NCBI GenBank assembly: GCA_965207705.1
Contig: OZ242292.1
Coordinates: 1,637,276 to 1,701,275 of the forward strand
DNA from: Gammaproteobacteria bacterium
GTDB lineage: Bacteria; Pseudomonadota; Gammaproteobacteria; CBDBNL01; JAAOII01
Direction: 5' to 3'
DNA length: 64,000 bases
The translations under genes were made by a program, and so were the position numbers. This document shows, in pieces, positions 7,105 through 13,170 of this stretch. Each line of letters starts with the position of its first letter. Positions within the stretch are counted from its first letter, which is position 1. The notes under the pieces were generated by a model. That model was not told where the DNA came from, did no database searches, and worked only from the letters and a program-made list of their open reading frames with translations.

Positions 7105-7461
7105 ATGGAAGATAAAAAACAGGATATGAATAGCAAGGATATAGCAAGTTTCCTACTTGCGGCAATGGAGGATATAAAAGCGGATAATCCAGTTTGTATG
7201 GATGTGCGCGAAATAACTGATATAACCGATTATATGCTGGTGGCAGCTGGTTCTTCTAGTCGTCATATTAAGGGTATATGCAGTCGCATATTAGAGGCGG
7301 CAAAACAGAATAATGTGGAAGTGTTAGGAGTTGAGGGTGAAGATAGTAAAGAATGGGTGCTGATAGACCTAAACTCAGTTATAGCCCATGTTATGTCTTC
7401 TGAGCAAAGGGAACTTTATCAGCTGGAATCATTATGGAGCGTCCCGCCTGAAAGCAAGTGA
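7105..7461 (+). CDS. rsfS: ribosomal silencing factor RsfS (Iojap/YbeB)
   Basis: 118 aa with an Iojap-like core (MLVAAGSSSRHIKGICSRILEAAK ... WVLIDLNSVIAHVM) in the conserved position after nadD. Confidence 0.88.
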   Translation: MEDKKQDMNSKDIASFLLAAMEDIKADNPVCMDVREITDITDYMLVAAGSSSRHIKGICSRILEAAKQNNVEVLGVEGEDSKEWVLIDLNSVIAHVMSSEQRELYQLESLWSVPPESK

Positions 7462-7522
7462 TGAAAGCGGACGATTATGTAATAAGCTATATTTGACTTA
7501 TTCCCATATATAATTACTAATA

Positions 7523-9379
7523 ATGGCATTTTTTTCAAGCAAGGCGATAAGAAACCAGGTAGAGGAGAATAGAATCTTCCGCGTCCGTATAGGAGTGCTT
7601 AGTTTCATGCTTCTGATAATGTTTGTCGTAATATTGTCAAGAGTTGCCTACTTGCAATTAATCAACTATGATGAACAGATTAGTCGCGCTGAGGATTACC
7701 ACATAAGATTACGCACCATAACCCCAGAAAGAGGATTAGTGTATGATGCCAAAGGACGGTTATTGGCGGGCAACATATTATCTTATGCTTTATATATCCA
7801 TCCTCTTAAGATAAAGAACACAGAGCTTCTTATAAAGGGGATTGGAAAATTGCTCCCATTGAAAGAAGAAGCACTCCAAAGTTTTTATAAAGAGCTGGCA
7901 AATGTCAGAAGACGTAATCAGCTAATCTTGCTGCATGAAGTCCTTACCGAAGAAGAAATTGCCAAATTAATGGTTAATCGCTATAGATTATCTGGCATTG
8001 ATATTCAGCCACATTTTCAGAGATTTTATCCACAGGGGGAGTTAGTGAGTCATGCGATTGGTTACACAGGAATAGTATCGGATAAGGATAAGCAGAATAT
8101 TAATCTTGAATATTATAGCGACCTGAACAGAATAGGTAAATTAGGACTTGAACGTTTTTACGAAAAGGAGCTAAGAGGTGTTCCAGGTGTAGAAGAAGTT
8201 GGAGTTAATGCTTATGGCAGAGTAGTGGAAGTATATCGTCAGGAAAGACCACAAAGAGGGCTTGATATGTCGTTATGGCTTGATATGAGTATTCAAGAAT
8301 TTGTGTGGGATGTGCTTGGAGATAAAAAAGGGACGATTATAGTTTTGGATGCTAATAGCGGCGGGATTGTTTCAATGATTAGCAAACCATCTTATGATAA
8401 TAACAAGTTTGTTGCGGGGATTAGTCGCGCCGAGTTTGCTAAGCTGCGCAATCAGAAGTCCGCTCCATTACTTAACCGCGCAGTTGCTGGCAGATACCCG
8501 CCTGGCTCAACAATTAAGCCATTTTATTCCATCATTGCTTTGAGCAATGAAGTGGTTACACCTAAAGATACTATATTTGATGAAGGATATTTTAGCCCGC
8601 CTAATAGTGATATTGTATTTCGTAATTGGAAGAGATCGGGGCACGGCGAGGTTAATCTAAAACGGGCTATACGAGTGTCTTCAGACACATACTTTTATAA
8701 TCTGGCAGCCAACATGGGCTATGATTTGATGAGAGAAGGTCTTGAGAGATTTGGCTTTGGTAAAAAAAGCGCTCATGATATCCATGATGAATTAACCTTA
8801 CCCCTACCGACCGAACAATGGAAAATGGAAAAGTATAATCTTCCTTGGTTTCCTGGCGATACAGTTAATATGGGAATAGGGCAAGGGTATTTTGTATCCA
8901 CCCCTATGCAGCTGGCAGCTGCAACTTTAATTTTGGTTAACAAGGGCAAGAATATTAGACCGCGTCTGGTTAAACAAATTGCAACAGAGGCAATGTATGA
9001 AGGATCTCCAGATATGGCAATTAGTTCCGATGAAAAGAATTGGGACTTGGTCTTCGCAGGCATGGAGGAAGTTATGCATCACAAAGAAGGAACTGCAAGA
9101 AGAGCGGGCTATAATGCCGCCTATAGAATGGCTGGAAAAACAGGGACCTCGCAAGTGATATCTCTTAAAATTATTGAAGCAGCAAAAAGTGAGGGGCGGG
9201 AAATAAGGGAAGAGTGGGAAGACCATGCTTCGTTCACTGGATATGTGCCAGCAGATGACCCTAAGTATATAGTCACAGTTGTGTTAGAAAATGGCGGTTC
9301 TGGTTCTCGTGCTGCTCTGCTTGCAAGAGAAGTGACGGATTATCTAATATTAGGAGAAGATAAAATTGGGTTGAAATAA
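7523..9379 (+). CDS. mrdA: peptidoglycan D,D-transpeptidase PBP2 (MrdA)
   Basis: 618 aa with an N-terminal TM anchor, a PBP dimerisation domain and a transpeptidase domain (STIKP active-site serine motif, SSD, KTGT), located upstream of rodA. Confidence 0.92.
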   Translation: MAFFSSKAIRNQVEENRIFRVRIGVLSFMLLIMFVVILSRVAYLQLINYDEQISRAEDYHIRLRTITPERGLVYDAKGRLLAGNILSYALYIHPLKIKNTELLIKGIGKLLPLKEEALQSFYKELANVRRRNQLILLHEVLTEEEIAKLMVNRYRLSGIDIQPHFQRFYPQGELVSHAIGYTGIVSDKDKQNINLEYYSDLNRIGKLGLERFYEKELRGVPGVEEVGVNAYGRVVEVYRQERPQRGLDMSLWLDMSIQEFVWDVLGDKKGTIIVLDANSGGIVSMISKPSYDNNKFVAGISRAEFAKLRNQKSAPLLNRAVAGRYPPGSTIKPFYSIIALSNEVVTPKDTIFDEGYFSPPNSDIVFRNWKRSGHGEVNLKRAIRVSSDTYFYNLAANMGYDLMREGLERFGFGKKSAHDIHDELTLPLPTEQWKMEKYNLPWFPGDTVNMGIGQGYFVSTPMQLAAATLILVNKGKNIRPRLVKQIATEAMYEGSPDMAISSDEKNWDLVFAGMEEVMHHKEGTARRAGYNAAYRMAGKTGTSQVISLKIIEAAKSEGREIREEWEDHASFTGYVPADDPKYIVTVVLENGGSGSRAALLAREVTDYLILGEDKIGLK

Positions 9380-10518: not shown

Positions 10519-10544
10519 ATTTACTTGTTCCTCTCTTGCGACGC

Positions 10545-10876
10545 AATTCTGGTATGTTGCTTGAATTCACGACGCATTTCTGGTATGGTGTTTGAACGAA
10601 CGATGATGGTCTGTAGGGGCGGAGCTGCGCTCCGCCCGCAAAATGCATAATACTCGCGACAAACCATCAGCATGCTCGCATCGCTCTGCCCGCAAAATGC
10701 ATAACACTCGCGACAAACCCTCGCTATGCTCGCGACCTTCTTATATGTGATGCATAAATTCTTGCGACACCCGTTTGATATAATGCATAAATTCTTGCAA
10801 CACAGGTCTGTAGGGGCGGAGCTGTGCTCCGCCCGCAAAATGTATAATACTCGCGACAAACTCTCGGCATGCTCGC
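10545..10876. repeat. composite REP cluster: two full hairpin cores (10608-10660, 10802-10855), one core-less tail unit and a 27-bp tandem repeat (10549-10604)
   Basis: GGTCTGTAGGGGCGGAGCTGCGCTCCGCCCGCAAAATGCATAATACTCGCGACAAACC occurs twice, with a partial copy in between. Direct repeats CGACGCAATTCTGGTATGTTGCTTGAA and CGACGCATTTCTGGTATGGTGTTTGAA are also present. A 112-aa minus-strand ORF here is an artefact of the repeats. Confidence 0.85.
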
Positions 10877-10924
10877 CTTATTTATTAATTTATTATTAAG
10901 AATTATTTTATAATAACTGTAGTT

Positions 10925-12208
10925 ATGAATATAAGAACATTATCCAAAGTCCCTAGTATTGGAGTAGCGTATGCAAGTAACTCTTTTATAAACAGCCCAG
11001 TTATAAACAGCTCGTCTCAAGAATCAGCAAAATATTTTTTACAAAATCAATTACCAAATGCTGAGTATCATCTTATTCCTAAGTCAGAGCTTATCAAAAA
11101 TAAAAGTGTTTTTATTGCTGAGGTGCTAGGTGATAGCATGGAAAAATTTAATATATATAGCGGTGATGCTGTTTTATTCGAAAAAAATAAAAAAGTAGAA
11201 AATGGTGATATCGTAATAATGGAAATCCAGGGTAATTTATTAATTAAACAGTACAAAGAAACTAAAGAATACATACATATATATTCTCATGACAAAGATA
11301 AAGTTAATAAAATTAAAAAAGATAGAGTTAAAATTATTGGTAAAGTATTTAATATTATTGAGTTGGCAGAAAGAAAAGAAGAAACAGCGCAAATCCCTAA
11401 ACTCGTAACAAATCAAATTGTTCATAGCGAAGCAATTAAATTTATGAAACAGCTGCCAGAACATTCAATTGATTTGACAGTAACATCTCCCCCTTATGAT
11501 AATTTACGCAGCTATGATGGCTATAACTTTGATTTTGAAGGCATTGCAACAGAATTATTTAGAGTTACCAATAAAGGGGGTGTGTTGGTTTGGGTTGTGG
11601 GCGACAAAATAAAAAATGGAAGTAAAACATTAACCAGTTTCAGGCAGGCAATTACTTTTCAAGAACTGGGGTTTTGTGTGCATGATATCATGATATATAA
11701 GAAGAAAAATACACCATTCATGCGTTCTAACGGATACACTAACTGCTTTGAATTTATGCTGGTATTAGGTAAAGGGAAACCAAAAACATTTAATCCAATT
11801 AAAATCAAGACAGTTAGACAAGGGTTAGAGTTACTGACTCATAACAAAGGTCCTGATGGTATAAATAAAAAAACCTTGGCTATGCTAAATAGCAAGAAAA
11901 CCAAAACTAATATTTGGGAATATGCTGTTGGCTTACATGGATCAACTAGTGATAAAGAGGCGTTTCAACACCCAGCCATATTCCCCGAGCAATTGGCAGA
12001 GGATCATATATTATCTTGGAGTAAGCCAGGTGACCTAGTATTTGATCCAATGTGCGGTTCTGGGACAACTTGTAAAATGGCAGCTAAGCATAAAAGACGC
12101 TATTTGGGATGTGATATTTCTTATAAATATGTGGCAATAGCAAGGAATAGAATAAAGGTAGTGGAGGATGCTTTATCTTTGTTTGATGAATTGGATGGCC
12201 CTTCTTAA
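10925..12208 (+). CDS. fusion protein of an N-terminal LexA/UmuD-like S24 peptidase domain and a C-terminal beta-class DNA N4/N6 methyltransferase (orphan; SPPY motif suggests N4-cytosine or N6-adenine)
   Basis: aa about 60-150 carry the S24 signature (VLGDSMEKF...GDAVLF...NGDIVIMEIQGNLLIKQYK...VKIIGKVFNI, with Ser in GDSM and Lys in LIKQ). aa about 170-425 carry DNA methylase N-4/N-6 motifs in beta order: motif IV DLTVTSPPY, then HPAIFPEQL, then motif I FDPMCGSGTT. The gene is strongly AT-rich relative to its neighbours, and no restriction endonuclease gene is adjacent. Confidence 0.7.
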   Translation: MNIRTLSKVPSIGVAYASNSFINSPVINSSSQESAKYFLQNQLPNAEYHLIPKSELIKNKSVFIAEVLGDSMEKFNIYSGDAVLFEKNKKVENGDIVIMEIQGNLLIKQYKETKEYIHIYSHDKDKVNKIKKDRVKIIGKVFNIIELAERKEETAQIPKLVTNQIVHSEAIKFMKQLPEHSIDLTVTSPPYDNLRSYDGYNFDFEGIATELFRVTNKGGVLVWVVGDKIKNGSKTLTSFRQAITFQELGFCVHDIMIYKKKNTPFMRSNGYTNCFEFMLVLGKGKPKTFNPIKIKTVRQGLELLTHNKGPDGINKKTLAMLNSKKTKTNIWEYAVGLHGSTSDKEAFQHPAIFPEQLAEDHILSWSKPGDLVFDPMCGSGTTCKMAAKHKRRYLGCDISYKYVAIARNRIKVVEDALSLFDELDGPS

Positions 12209-12261
12209 TATTTGTGAATCTTCATCAGTATAGTATATAAAATAGCAATGCAGGTTTTAAA

Positions 12262-12346
12262 CTTGCGACGGTGGTCTGTAGGGGCGGAAGCATATATACC
12301 CCCCTTGGCTCCGCTCGCATCGTACTTATGTATAATACTTGCAATG
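12262..12346. repeat. REP-like element, degenerate, with an insertion in the loop
   Basis: CTTGCGACGGTGGTCTGTAGGGGCGGAAGCATATATACCCCCCTTGGCTCCGCTCGC...TATAATACTTGC matches the REP core with a loop insertion related to the CTATATTCATCCCCC module. Confidence 0.7.
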
Positions 12347-12368
12347 TACTCTATTTACTACAACAAAT

Positions 12369-13014
12369 TATGAAAATACAACTATACTCAGACCGCACCC
12401 CCAACGGCTGGAAGATTGAAATAATGCTCAAAGAGTTGGGCATTGATTACGACTTCCACCATATTGACATAACCACAGGAGACCAGTTTGGCAAAGAGTT
12501 TCTGGCAGTAAGTCCAAACAATAAAATACCCGCTATTATTGATCCGCAGGGTCCTGACAATAAAGAAATATCTCTTTTTGAATCAGGCGCTATCCTCATA
12601 TACCTGGCAGAGAATTATAAAAGCCCTTTATTGCCACAAGAGCCGCGTCTAAAATACGAGACCTTAGTTTGGTTAATGTTTCAGATGGGTGGCATAGGTC
12701 CCTTTCTTGGTCAAGCCCATCATTTTATCCGCGCTGCCCCCCAGAAAATTGATTATGCAATTACAAGATATGTAAATGAGGCATCGCGTCTTTACAAGGT
12801 TATGGATAATCGCTTGGCGGAGCATCCGTATCTGGCTGCTGATGACTATACTATTGCAGATATTGCTTGTTTTCCTTGGATTTTCTCTCATCAATGGCAA
12901 CATCAGAATCTTGATGATTTCCCCAACCTACAAAAATGGTATACAGCCATTGAAAGCCGTCCTGCAGTTAGGCAGGTTTTTAAGGATATACCCCAACGTG
13001 AGTTAACCCCGTAG
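12369..13014 (+). CDS. yfcG: Nu-class glutathione S-transferase (YfcG/YghU-like disulfide reductase type)
   Basis: Collinear similarity to E. coli YfcG (TPNGWKI...SPNNKIPAIIDP...LFESGAILIYLAE...WLMFQMGGIGPFLGQAHHF...IADIACFPW). The ORF-track start at 12271 lies inside a REP element, so the ATG at 12369 (MKIQLY) is preferred. Confidence 0.85.
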
Positions 13015-13021
13015 GGGACAT

Positions 13022-13170
13022 TGTCGCGAGCTTTATACATTTTGCGGGCGGAGCGCAGCTCCGCCCCTACAGACCTATGTCGCAAGAATTCAAACAACAT
13101 ATCAAATGGGAGTCGCAAGAATTCAAACAACATATCAAATGGGCGTCGCAAGAATTTATGCGTCATAAAT
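13022..13170. repeat. REP element in reverse orientation followed by 2.6 tandem copies of a 33-bp unit
   Basis: GTCGCGAGCTTTATACATTTTGCGGGCGGAGCGCAGCTCCGCCCCTACAGACC is the reverse complement of the REP core. After it, GTCGCAAGAATTCAAACAACATATCAAATGGG(A/C) occurs twice, then a truncated copy. A 68-aa plus-strand ORF here is a repeat artefact. Confidence 0.85.

Follow-up and report, generated by a model that had tools for sequence, protein, structure and literature searches.

The window analysed here is a stretch of 64,000 nt of contig OZ242292.1 (assembly GCA_965207705.1), from a gammaproteobacterium that has not been cultivated and whose genome measures about 1.8-2.2 Mb; its LysRS reaches 98% identity only with metagenome-assembled genomes and 58-64% with named Gammaproteobacteria. 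Between rodA and a GST gene it carries a single open reading frame (ORF) of 427 aa in which a peptidase S24 domain of the LexA C-terminal type is joined to a DNA methyltransferase domain (Table 1). This fusion had been reported in a preliminary description of the locus, and the Pfam matches agree with it: Peptidase_S24 (PF00717) is found at aa 42-142 with 65.5 bits (gathering cut-off 23.3), so that the N-terminal domain is indeed recognized by the S24 model, and N6_N4_Mtase (PF01555) at aa 182-407 with 144.8 bits (cut-off 26.7), covering model positions 1-220 of 221. All the motifs named in that description are present by direct reading, including GDSM (aa 69-72) and LLIKQ, which contains Lys108, together with motif IV (SPPY), located N-terminal to motif I (FDPMCGSGTT) in the order of the beta class. 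Additionally, 133 of the 154 methyltransferase columns conserved in the family are kept, and PADLOC assigns the protein to oMTase/MTase_II with 270 bits. Both a Ser/Lys dyad of the S24 type and a complete methyltransferase are thereby confirmed.

The absence of any domain of the helix-turn-helix (HTH) type, also noted earlier, holds as well, as no Pfam or NCBIfam model for such a domain matched the 427-aa protein, including the LexA winged-HTH model PF01726. The NCBIfam LexA model (TIGR00498) yields 53.8 bits against an equivalog cut-off of 110.95 and the UmuD model (PRK10276) 45.1 bits against 110, in both cases over the S24 part only. AlphaFold2 predicts the protein with a mean pLDDT (predicted local distance difference test) of 61.5, with a confident methyltransferase core, a disordered segment at aa 1-52 (pLDDT below 50) and an S24-type beta fold at aa 63-145. 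According to Foldseek, the predicted S24 part resembles the C-terminal domains of LexA in 3k2z (root-mean-square deviation of 2.1 A over 102 columns), 6a2q and 1jhf. The gene is richer in AT than its neighbours, as had been stated, with a GC content of 33.1% compared to 38.2% for rodA, 42.3% for the GST gene and 41.8% for the window; its two parts differ in this respect, with 26.7% for aa 1-145 and 36.4% for aa 146-427.

Table 1. Features of the S24-methyltransferase locus in window coordinates, and gene orders in related strains (M, modification methyltransferase gene; R, restriction endonuclease gene; R-M, restriction-modification; REP, repetitive extragenic palindromic element).
Feature	Position	Strand	Basis or remark
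S24-methyltransferase ORF, M gene of an Hpy99I-type Type II R-M cassette	10925..12208	+	427 aa; Pfam, PADLOC, sibling-strain synteny
N-terminal tail, aa 1-45	10925..11059	+	weak BLASTP match to fusion L026; disordered in AlphaFold2 prediction
Peptidase S24 (LexA C-terminal-type) domain, aa 42-145	11048..11359	+	Pfam, conserved residues, predicted fold
Beta-class N4-cytosine-type DNA methyltransferase domain, aa 163-411	11411..12157	+	Pfam, motifs, structure matches
Motif IV SPPY, aa 188-191	11486-11497	+	direct reading
Motif I FDPMCGSGTT, aa 373-382	12041-12070	+	direct reading
Endonuclease gene remnant, stop codon and 16 codons (51 nt)	12173-12223	-	equals L002 7249-7299; overlaps the M 3' end
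Junction of the 577-bp deletion	12223/12224	.	blastn and direct reading against L002
Cassette left edge and AT-rich leader	10869..10924	+	homology of L001 with L002 and the window starts at 10869
REP cluster between rodA and cassette	10534..10876	+	repeat families D1-D4, D8
REP copy between deletion junction and GST gene (ATG at 12370)	12256..12352	+	families D2, D4
Strain L091			rodA-SLT_2-GST (inverted)-GST2; cassette absent
Strain L002			rodA-M-R-GST-GST2
Strain L001			rodA-GST-M-R-GST2
Strain L093			rodA-SLT_2-GST-M-GST2; R removed

The comparison with sibling strains identifies the system to which the gene belongs. The M gene is 100% identical in L002 and 98% identical in L001 (a 2.24-Mb contig), and in both strains a convergent R gene encoding a 193-aa protein overlaps its 3' end by 36 nt; in L002 the full R gene occupies 7249-7830 on the minus strand. 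The 193-aa protein contains the domains His_Me_b4a2 and Endonuclease_7, aligns over its whole length with R.Hpy99I (PDB 3fc3; E = 9e-48) and is recognized by the PADLOC model for Type II restriction endonucleases, REase_II (1.5e-47). Residue roles were assigned as in the published Hpy99I structure, with the chain numbering of the alignment equal to that of the paper plus 10 (anchored on HDHNH). On this basis the sibling protein shares every catalytic residue (Asp148, His149 and Asn165; 3/3) and every base-contacting residue (Asn83, Gln84, Arg94, Asp162 and Arg170; 5/5). The segment common to L001 and L002 spans 1,923 bp, from window position 10869, 56 nt 5' of the ATG, to a right edge equivalent to L002 7867.

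The window corresponds to L002 minus a clean stretch of 577 bp (L002 7300-7876), and at the junction GTGAATCTTC is directly followed by ATCAGTATAG. With this deletion the R gene disappeared, along with the sequence upstream of it and the right-hand boundary of the cassette. Consequently, no cognate endonuclease gene adjoins M in the window, where only the 51-nt remnant of its 3' end is found. The earlier statement that there is no endonuclease gene is thus literally true of the window, even though the last codons of one survive there. Likewise, the methyltransferase is solitary in the window, as the term orphan implies, but this status is secondary: it is an orphan only because its partner has been recently deleted, the R gene being still present in L001 and L002. 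The suggestion that the architecture falls outside standard R-M and orphan systems does not stand, given that the gene represents the M half of an Hpy99I-family Type IIP cassette from which R has been deleted here.

In strain L093 the R gene was lost by a different deletion, which kept the R upstream region and altered the last residues of M. The M ORF is open in four strain variants, two of them devoid of R. It follows that R has been lost at least twice independently, with the M frame open each time. The arrangements listed in Table 1 differ among strains and, accordingly, the cassette is mobile or variable.

As for the target, M.Hpy99I (jhp0756), a Type IIP enzyme of the beta class, produces N4-methylcytosine (m4C) at CGWCG. 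The solved structures nearest to the methyltransferase domain, by sequence and by predicted fold, are 8s9m/8s9n (an N4-cytosine methyltransferase), followed by TTHA0409, CcrM and M.MboIIA, with 2zie likewise among the nearest. The SPPY motif, the match to an N4-cytosine methyltransferase structure and the m4C product of M.Hpy99I together move the N4/N6 ambiguity towards N4-cytosine; the predicted target would be CGWCG, indirectly supported also by the base-contacting residues shared between R.Hpy99I and the sibling R protein, and the predicted product N4-methylcytosine. In the window, CGWCG occurs 14 times against 32.6 expected (ratio of 0.43, z = -3.3, rank 11-12 of 1008 pentamers), whereas the control CGSCG is found 118 times against 114.7 expected, an under-representation that fits past restriction at CGWCG. 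The solitary m4C methyltransferase left in the window strain is probably still active.

A far stronger avoidance was observed for another pentamer. AGNCT has five sites in the window (33216, 33331, 38278, 43510 and 61228) against about 134 expected, with an observed/expected ratio of 0.03-0.05; no other pentamer comes near this degree of avoidance. By contrast, AGCT is common (266 sites), as is AGNNCT (210 sites). The avoidance is seen in all the strains compared (L091, L093, L001 and L092), including the cassette-free L091 (1 site against 51.6 expected). AGNCT was rejected as the target of the cassette, as its avoidance is equally extreme where the cassette is absent and R keeps the residues that read CGWCG; the Hpy99I-type system thus has no part in it, and the scarcity of AGNCT suggests that a different restriction activity, highly effective and long resident in this species, or selection of some other kind, is at work.

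Homology searches place the window protein next to a large family of fusions. Besides the sibling strains, its best matches are hundreds of proteins of 456-484 aa with the domain order LexA_DNA_bind, Peptidase_S24 and N6_N4_Mtase, 55-59% identical to it. In species-representative genomes, all the matches that reach the S24 region and carry a phylum-level name belong to Patescibacteria, namely to Moran-, Nealson-, Lipton-, Woese-, Nomura-, Magasanik-, Vogel-, Falkow-, Buchanan-, Yanofsky- and Amesbacteria, to Paceibacterota and to metagenome-assembled genomes (MAGs) labelled Saccharibacteria; the form consisting of the methyltransferase only is spread over Bacteria and Archaea. A gene for an Hpy99I-like nuclease adjoins M in nearly all of the roughly 90 loci; in almost all of the bacterial ones it is adjacent, usually in convergent orientation and abutting. 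The N-terminal 200 aa of the fusions qualify as a full LexA by the curated NCBI standard, with 170-191 bits for the relatives L003, L005 and L085, well above the equivalog cut-off, over model positions 4-202 of 203, and the fusions carry the Ala-Gly cleavage site (IAAGQP) as well as the catalytic Ser and Lys. In public databases they go by names such as "transcriptional repressor LexA" or "modification methylase". The module also occurs in a split form in L085, where a lexA gene of 202 aa is followed 1 nt further on by M and then by a convergent R, and HTH-M forms devoid of S24 are found in L032, L034 and L071. The nearest relatives of the methyltransferase domain are the 286-aa methyltransferase-only proteins of L009 and L014 (Paceibacterota; 73-75% identical). 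Beside the methyltransferase-only genes of L009/L010, a detached LexA was not found; the conserved upstream ORF of 176 aa has neither a Pfam match nor similarity to the window N-terminus. In phage and plasmid collections only the methyltransferase domain was matched and the fused form was absent.

The promoter regions of the fusion genes share distinctive elements. A TGTGGATAA(CT) box lies upstream of 23 of the 28 distinct fusion genes (background of 0.017 per 110 nt), compared to 4 of 48 methyltransferase-only genes. The box is followed by -35/-10 hexamers interleaved with the repeated half-sites TTCTAG, TTTCGGT and TTTCGAT, which in L005 and L037 make up a perfect palindrome, TTCTAGTATACTAGAA, across the -10 element. 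By analogy with M.SsoII and M.Ecl18kI, we infer that the LexA module would act as an auto-repressor of the M promoter, with these repeated or palindromic sites, laid out as in the auto-repression of SsoII/Ecl18kI, as candidate operators. The Patescibacteria relatives resemble M.SsoII, M.Ecl18kI, M.EcoRII and M.MspI in having a DNA-binding domain fused N-terminal to a Type II methyltransferase. The members of the M.SsoII group, however, are 5-methylcytosine methyltransferases that lack a protease domain and whose HTH, of the Xre type, is short (about 70 aa), whereas the regulator of Patescibacteria is a whole LexA (winged HTH, cleavage loop and S24). A 2025 review on R-M regulation covers HTH-fused regulatory methyltransferases, and neither "LexA" nor "S24" appears in it. 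In the literature searched, no description was found of LexA/S24-methyltransferase fusions or of R-M control of the LexA type, with the reservation that Sanchez-Osuna et al. (2017), on the SOS network of Patescibacteria, may mention such fusions.

Three further observations were made in this family. An 11-mer, TGTGGATAACT, is conserved 5' of 23 of the 28 fusion genes (at about 4917-5000 in L005; also in L016, L019, L021, L022, L025, L037, L047 and others), and over its first nine bases it reads as the DnaA-box consensus TTATCCACA in reverse complement; this 11-mer could represent a DnaA box, a part of the operator of the LexA module or a boundary of the cassette. In L005-L008, a 73-aa HTH_3 gene lies directly upstream of R (e.g., L005 6955-7176, minus strand), the classical position of a C protein. 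Cassettes of this type would combine two regulators, a C protein acting on R, as in PvuII-type systems, and the LexA module acting on M; unlike PvuII-type systems, the gammaproteobacterial cassette has no C gene. Finally, MAGs of Marine group II archaea (Thalassarchaeaceae, Poseidoniales) encode methyltransferase-only homologues 66-70% identical (L038, L039, L041, L042, L046, L048, L051, L053, L054, L056, L057, L072 and L087); no Hpy99I-like nuclease is detectable in their flanks and, therefore, they are apparently solitary methyltransferases.

Compared to these fusions, the window protein lacks the parts on which a LexA-type switch depends. The BLASTP alignment with fusion L026 relates window aa 4-45 weakly to L026 aa 56-98, a stretch with the wing of the HTH, the linker and the cleavage loop; within it, FINSPVINS-SSQESAKYF of the window faces FVSVPLIGTITAGEQIEMF, and other residues stand where the fusion has the scissile Ala-Gly. 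Opposite the cleavage loop the window protein reads INSSSQES. The Ala and Gly columns are occupied by Gln32 and Ser34 or, in the BLASTP alignment, by "S-SS". No Ala-Gly or Cys-Gly dipeptide is present in aa 1-60, where the sole Gly sits in Ile-Gly. We consider that aa 1-45 are probably what remains of a LexA between the wing of its HTH and its old cleavage loop, the linker included. In L093, a 15-bp in-frame deletion removed 5 aa of the former loop, between 9-bp direct repeats (ATAAACAGC, at 10988-10996 and 11003-11011), which indicates that the segment tolerates changes in length. An HTH remnant upstream of the ATG was sought and rejected, as the frame is open for 36 nt only, the cassette edge lies 56 nt upstream and nothing recognizable is found. 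Nor do the 400 nt upstream of the window gene contain a box of the TGTGGATAA type, and the other operator-like elements are absent as well, so that the window protein departs from the M.SsoII group in having neither an HTH nor the conserved upstream elements.

The core of the S24 domain shows a different picture. Ser71 and Lys108 align with the columns of LexA Ser119 and Lys156, and eight of the nine positions conserved in at least 90% of 139 diverse S24 proteins (a comparison set chosen by similarity to the window domain) are retained: Gly69, Ser71, Met72, Ile77, Gly80, Asp81, Lys108 and Gly139. The Ala/Gly positions and the LxPxN motif are missing. In relation to the 28 fusions, identity is 28% for the S24 part and 69% for the methyltransferase domain, a ratio of 0.41, compared to 0.78 +/- 0.17 between pairs of fusions (minimum 0.51). 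As read from these alignments, the catalytic core is kept, while the canonical substrate of cleavage and the part to be released are gone. The window protein thus shares with LexA, UmuD and phage CI the S24 fold, the Gly-x-Ser-Met nucleophile motif and the general-base Lys, and differs from them in having no HTH and no Ala-Gly or Cys-Gly site, in scoring below the LexA and UmuD cut-offs and in being fused to an enzyme. A LexA-type switch is not supported by its LexA score, which contrasts with both the model cut-off and the scores of the Patescibacteria relatives.

Taken together, these findings make it probable, in our view, that the window gene encodes the M subunit of an acquired 1.9-kb Hpy99I-type cassette, derived from a LexA-type regulatory methyltransferase whose HTH and cleavage site are gone and whose R gene was deleted, and that it is not a LexA-type switch. 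The S24 part would be best understood as a leftover whose structure is intact, carried by an m4C methyltransferase that is ordinary in other respects. Signs of a foreign origin are the GC content of the gene (33% compared to 42% for the host) and the fact that its nearest methyltransferase relatives, 73-75% identical, are Paceibacterota, which looks like gene flow between Patescibacteria and the gammaproteobacterium.

In the model that we propose, a Type IIP cassette of the Hpy99I family, 1.9 kb in length, would have been acquired horizontally by the gammaproteobacterium and inserted into a REP-rich hotspot downstream of rodA. The donor phylum would be Patescibacteria, to which the nearest relatives of both M and R belong. 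In the state usual in that phylum, a complete LexA (winged HTH, Ala-Gly loop and S24) fused to M would constitute a built-in repressor of the M promoter, and self-cleavage stimulated by RecA* would detach the DNA-binding head and could raise methylation while the chromosome is being cut. In the lineage of the window, the HTH, the Ala-Gly site and the operator region would have disappeared, so that an intact methyltransferase is preceded by no more than an S24 core that has diverged; this leftover may still aid dimerisation, without switching of the LexA type. In the window strain the 577-bp deletion then took the endonuclease gene and left a solitary m4C methyltransferase. In comparison with an independent fusion, the truncation of an HTH-S24-M ancestor would be more economical.

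Several results weigh against this account. The S24 part of the window protein is 28% identical to that of the fusions and up to 42% identical to unrelated LexA-like proteins, and its methyltransferase domain is sister to the methyltransferase-only proteins of Paceibacterota L009 and L014 in a quick neighbour-joining tree without support values; on account of these identities and of this grouping, truncation is not proven. The depletion of CGWCG is moderate, and 4 of its 14 sites lie inside REPs. The changes between strains within the S24 part are few (0 synonymous and 2 non-synonymous), and its core, with eight of nine near-universal residues kept and a LexA-like predicted fold, does not resemble random decay and may be under selection for some activity. 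In addition, P0276, an unrelated R-M methyltransferase, also has an HTH-less N-terminal S24 domain, 39% identical to that of the window, which hints at a recurrent functional architecture.

P0276, complete at 557 aa, consists of an S24 domain without HTH (start MNFSPFPFYGEVLAGSP, with Ala14-Gly15), HEAT repeats and an SPPY methyltransferase. Together with the stand-alone LexA-like protein P0274 (42% identical, on a 1-kb contig) it provides the S24 domains closest to that of the window. Like the window protein, P0276 places an HTH-less S24 domain N-terminal to an SPPY methyltransferase of the beta class that forms part of a Type II R-M pair with convergent genes, yet it belongs to a different methyltransferase family (26% identity), is paired with a different nuclease family and contains the HEAT insert and the Ala-Gly dipeptide. 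An HTH-less S24 domain on an R-M methyltransferase has arisen at least twice. In the P0276 locus (L094, 5001-7571), the gene is convergent to a gene for a CfrBI-family endonuclease, and a methyltransferase gene paired with a HinfI-family one is found 3 kb away. Other S24 fusions were observed among distant relatives (P0359, P0278 and P0380): a UvrD-type helicase with HSDR_N and a C-terminal S24 (813 aa), a UvrD-like protein with S24 (611 aa) and a caspase (Peptidase_C14) with two S24-matching stretches and a LexA HTH (733 aa).

The same data allow for an independent origin, in which a methyltransferase-only gene of the Hpy99I type would have been fused to an S24 gene from another lineage, either UmuD-like or P0276-like. 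When aa 1-160 were compared exhaustively with 1.84 billion representatives, no close relative emerged: the best match reached 68 bits with 29% identity and only two matches fell below 1e-10; the top S24 matches are proteins of the size of LexA or CI, and the Patescibacteria fusions are outside the best 150. Both the higher S24 identity to P0276 and P0274 (39-42%) than to the fusions and the different GC content of the two halves are in line with such an origin, as is the grouping of the methyltransferase domain and its C-terminal tail, SLFDELDGPS, with the methyltransferase-only L009 and L014. That grouping, however, comes from a tree without support values; P0276 aside, all the S24-methyltransferase fusions found belong to the same M family; the split arrangement of L085 shows the LexA module travelling with the cassette; and window aa 4-45 show a weak alignment with a fusion over its cleavage loop, linker and HTH wing. 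An architecture census by homology search with a two-sequence S24 alignment returned 119 candidates, none of them significant. On balance, we regard an independent fusion as rather doubtful.

Leaving its origin aside, the S24 domain could have a role that does not involve proteolysis, either in the dimerisation of the methyltransferase on the near-palindromic CGWCG or in binding the host LexA or a RecA filament. The C-terminal domain of LexA is its dimerisation domain; in the window protein the core residues of the fold are conserved and the fold is predicted to be intact, the ORF remains intact in the four strain variants, including the two that lost R, and an HTH-less S24-methyltransferase recurs in the unrelated R-M pair of P0276. 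Against this notion, the closest methyltransferase relatives (L009 and L014) work without any N-terminal module, and divergence is much greater in the S24 part, where the AT content of the gene is also highest, than in the methyltransferase part. Moreover, the intact ORF is uninformative on the function of S24, because translation of the methyltransferase needs an open frame in any case. We hold a non-proteolytic role to be unlikely.

A broader proposal is that LexA/S24 modules on Type II methyltransferases constitute an undescribed layer of damage-coupled control, in which RecA*, activated by self-restriction or by breaks that phages induce, would lead to cleavage or re-partnering of the module and hence to changes in expression, stability or activity of the methyltransferase, the window protein being still an active sensor through a non-canonical site or through contact with the host LexA or RecA. 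The modules are found as full fusions in Patescibacteria and in HTH-less form in the window gammaproteobacterium and in the CfrBI-type system. To this proposal, including an active sensor in the window, we give a small chance.

Slighter still is the chance that the window protein is itself an active autoprotease, that is, a methyltransferase gated by DNA damage that is either RecA*-activatable or self-cleaving, as put forward in the preliminary description, through a non-canonical scissile bond or cleavage in trans. The Ser71/Lys108 dyad and the other near-universal S24 residues are retained, the predicted fold resembles that of the LexA C-terminal domain, the layout of a short N-terminal arm followed by S24 is reminiscent of UmuD (45 bits with PRK10276, below its cut-off), and the HTH-less P0276 keeps an Ala-Gly near its N-terminus. 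The window protein, in turn, has INSSSQES in place of the loop and no Ala-Gly or Cys-Gly in aa 1-60, one strain (L093) has lost 5 aa within that loop, the LxPxN motif is missing, aa 1-52 are predicted to be disordered and there is no DNA-binding domain for cleavage to release. Hence, the idea of a self-cleaving, damage-gated methyltransferase is not borne out for this protein, in which canonical RecA*-gated self-cleavage is unlikely, although it may apply to the ancestral full-length LexA-methyltransferase fusions. That the fusion is an artefact, by a frameshift or an assembly chimera joining two genes, can be dismissed with near certainty, since the same 427-aa ORF, or one 97-98% identical to it, is read through in the independent assemblies L002, L001 and L093 (the last with a 416-aa allele) and hundreds of related fusions have an identical domain order.

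In comparison with the Hpy99I system of Helicobacter pylori J99 (R structures 3FC3 and 3GOX; CGWCG), the sibling cassette has an R protein with the same catalytic and base-contacting residues and with both beta4-alpha2 zinc repeats, and the window M is likewise of the beta class with an SPPY motif of the N4-cytosine type, a likeness drawn from the description of M.Hpy99I. The window system differs in the 160-aa N-terminal extension of M that contains S24, in the deletion of R, in its gammaproteobacterial host and in having its nearest relatives in Patescibacteria.

The surroundings of the cassette are rich in REPs, and the bracketing of the gene by such elements, as previously described, is supported by the repeat families and by the count of the REP core, GTAGGGGCGGAGC, for which the window has 11 occurrences where 0.62 would be expected. 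A 72-nt REP unit is present in three copies at 10608-10876, in one at 12256-12352 and in inverted copies at 13021-13170. Gene content varies here among strains. A lytic transglycosylase gene (SLT_2, 316-328 aa) lies 3' of rodA in L091 (5271-6221) and L093 (9158-10144); the window, L001 and L002 lack it and have a REP cluster at its place (10519-10876 in the window). The GST gene is inverted in L091 and is found on either side of the M-R cassette depending on the strain, and a 46-bp piece of the GST 5' end is retained beside R in L001. The interval between rodA and GST2 is a REP-associated rearrangement hotspot.

Our findings present the window gene as the decayed form of a regulatory methyltransferase whose Type II R-M family is already known, and the locus as a case of decay in which an R-M cassette was acquired, its nuclease was lost twice independently and its methyltransferase was kept. 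Of broader interest is that Patescibacteria have a bona fide LexA fused or directly adjacent to the methyltransferase of a widespread R-M system of the Hpy99I type, with conserved operator-like DNA upstream. RecA*-gated self-cleavage in this family is plausible from the features of its members and apparently undescribed. If the LexA module works as the sequence suggests, the SOS signal would be tied to the balance between modification and restriction, as a plausible safeguard against autoimmunity, which makes the full-length family of Patescibacteria a more interesting lead than the window gene itself.

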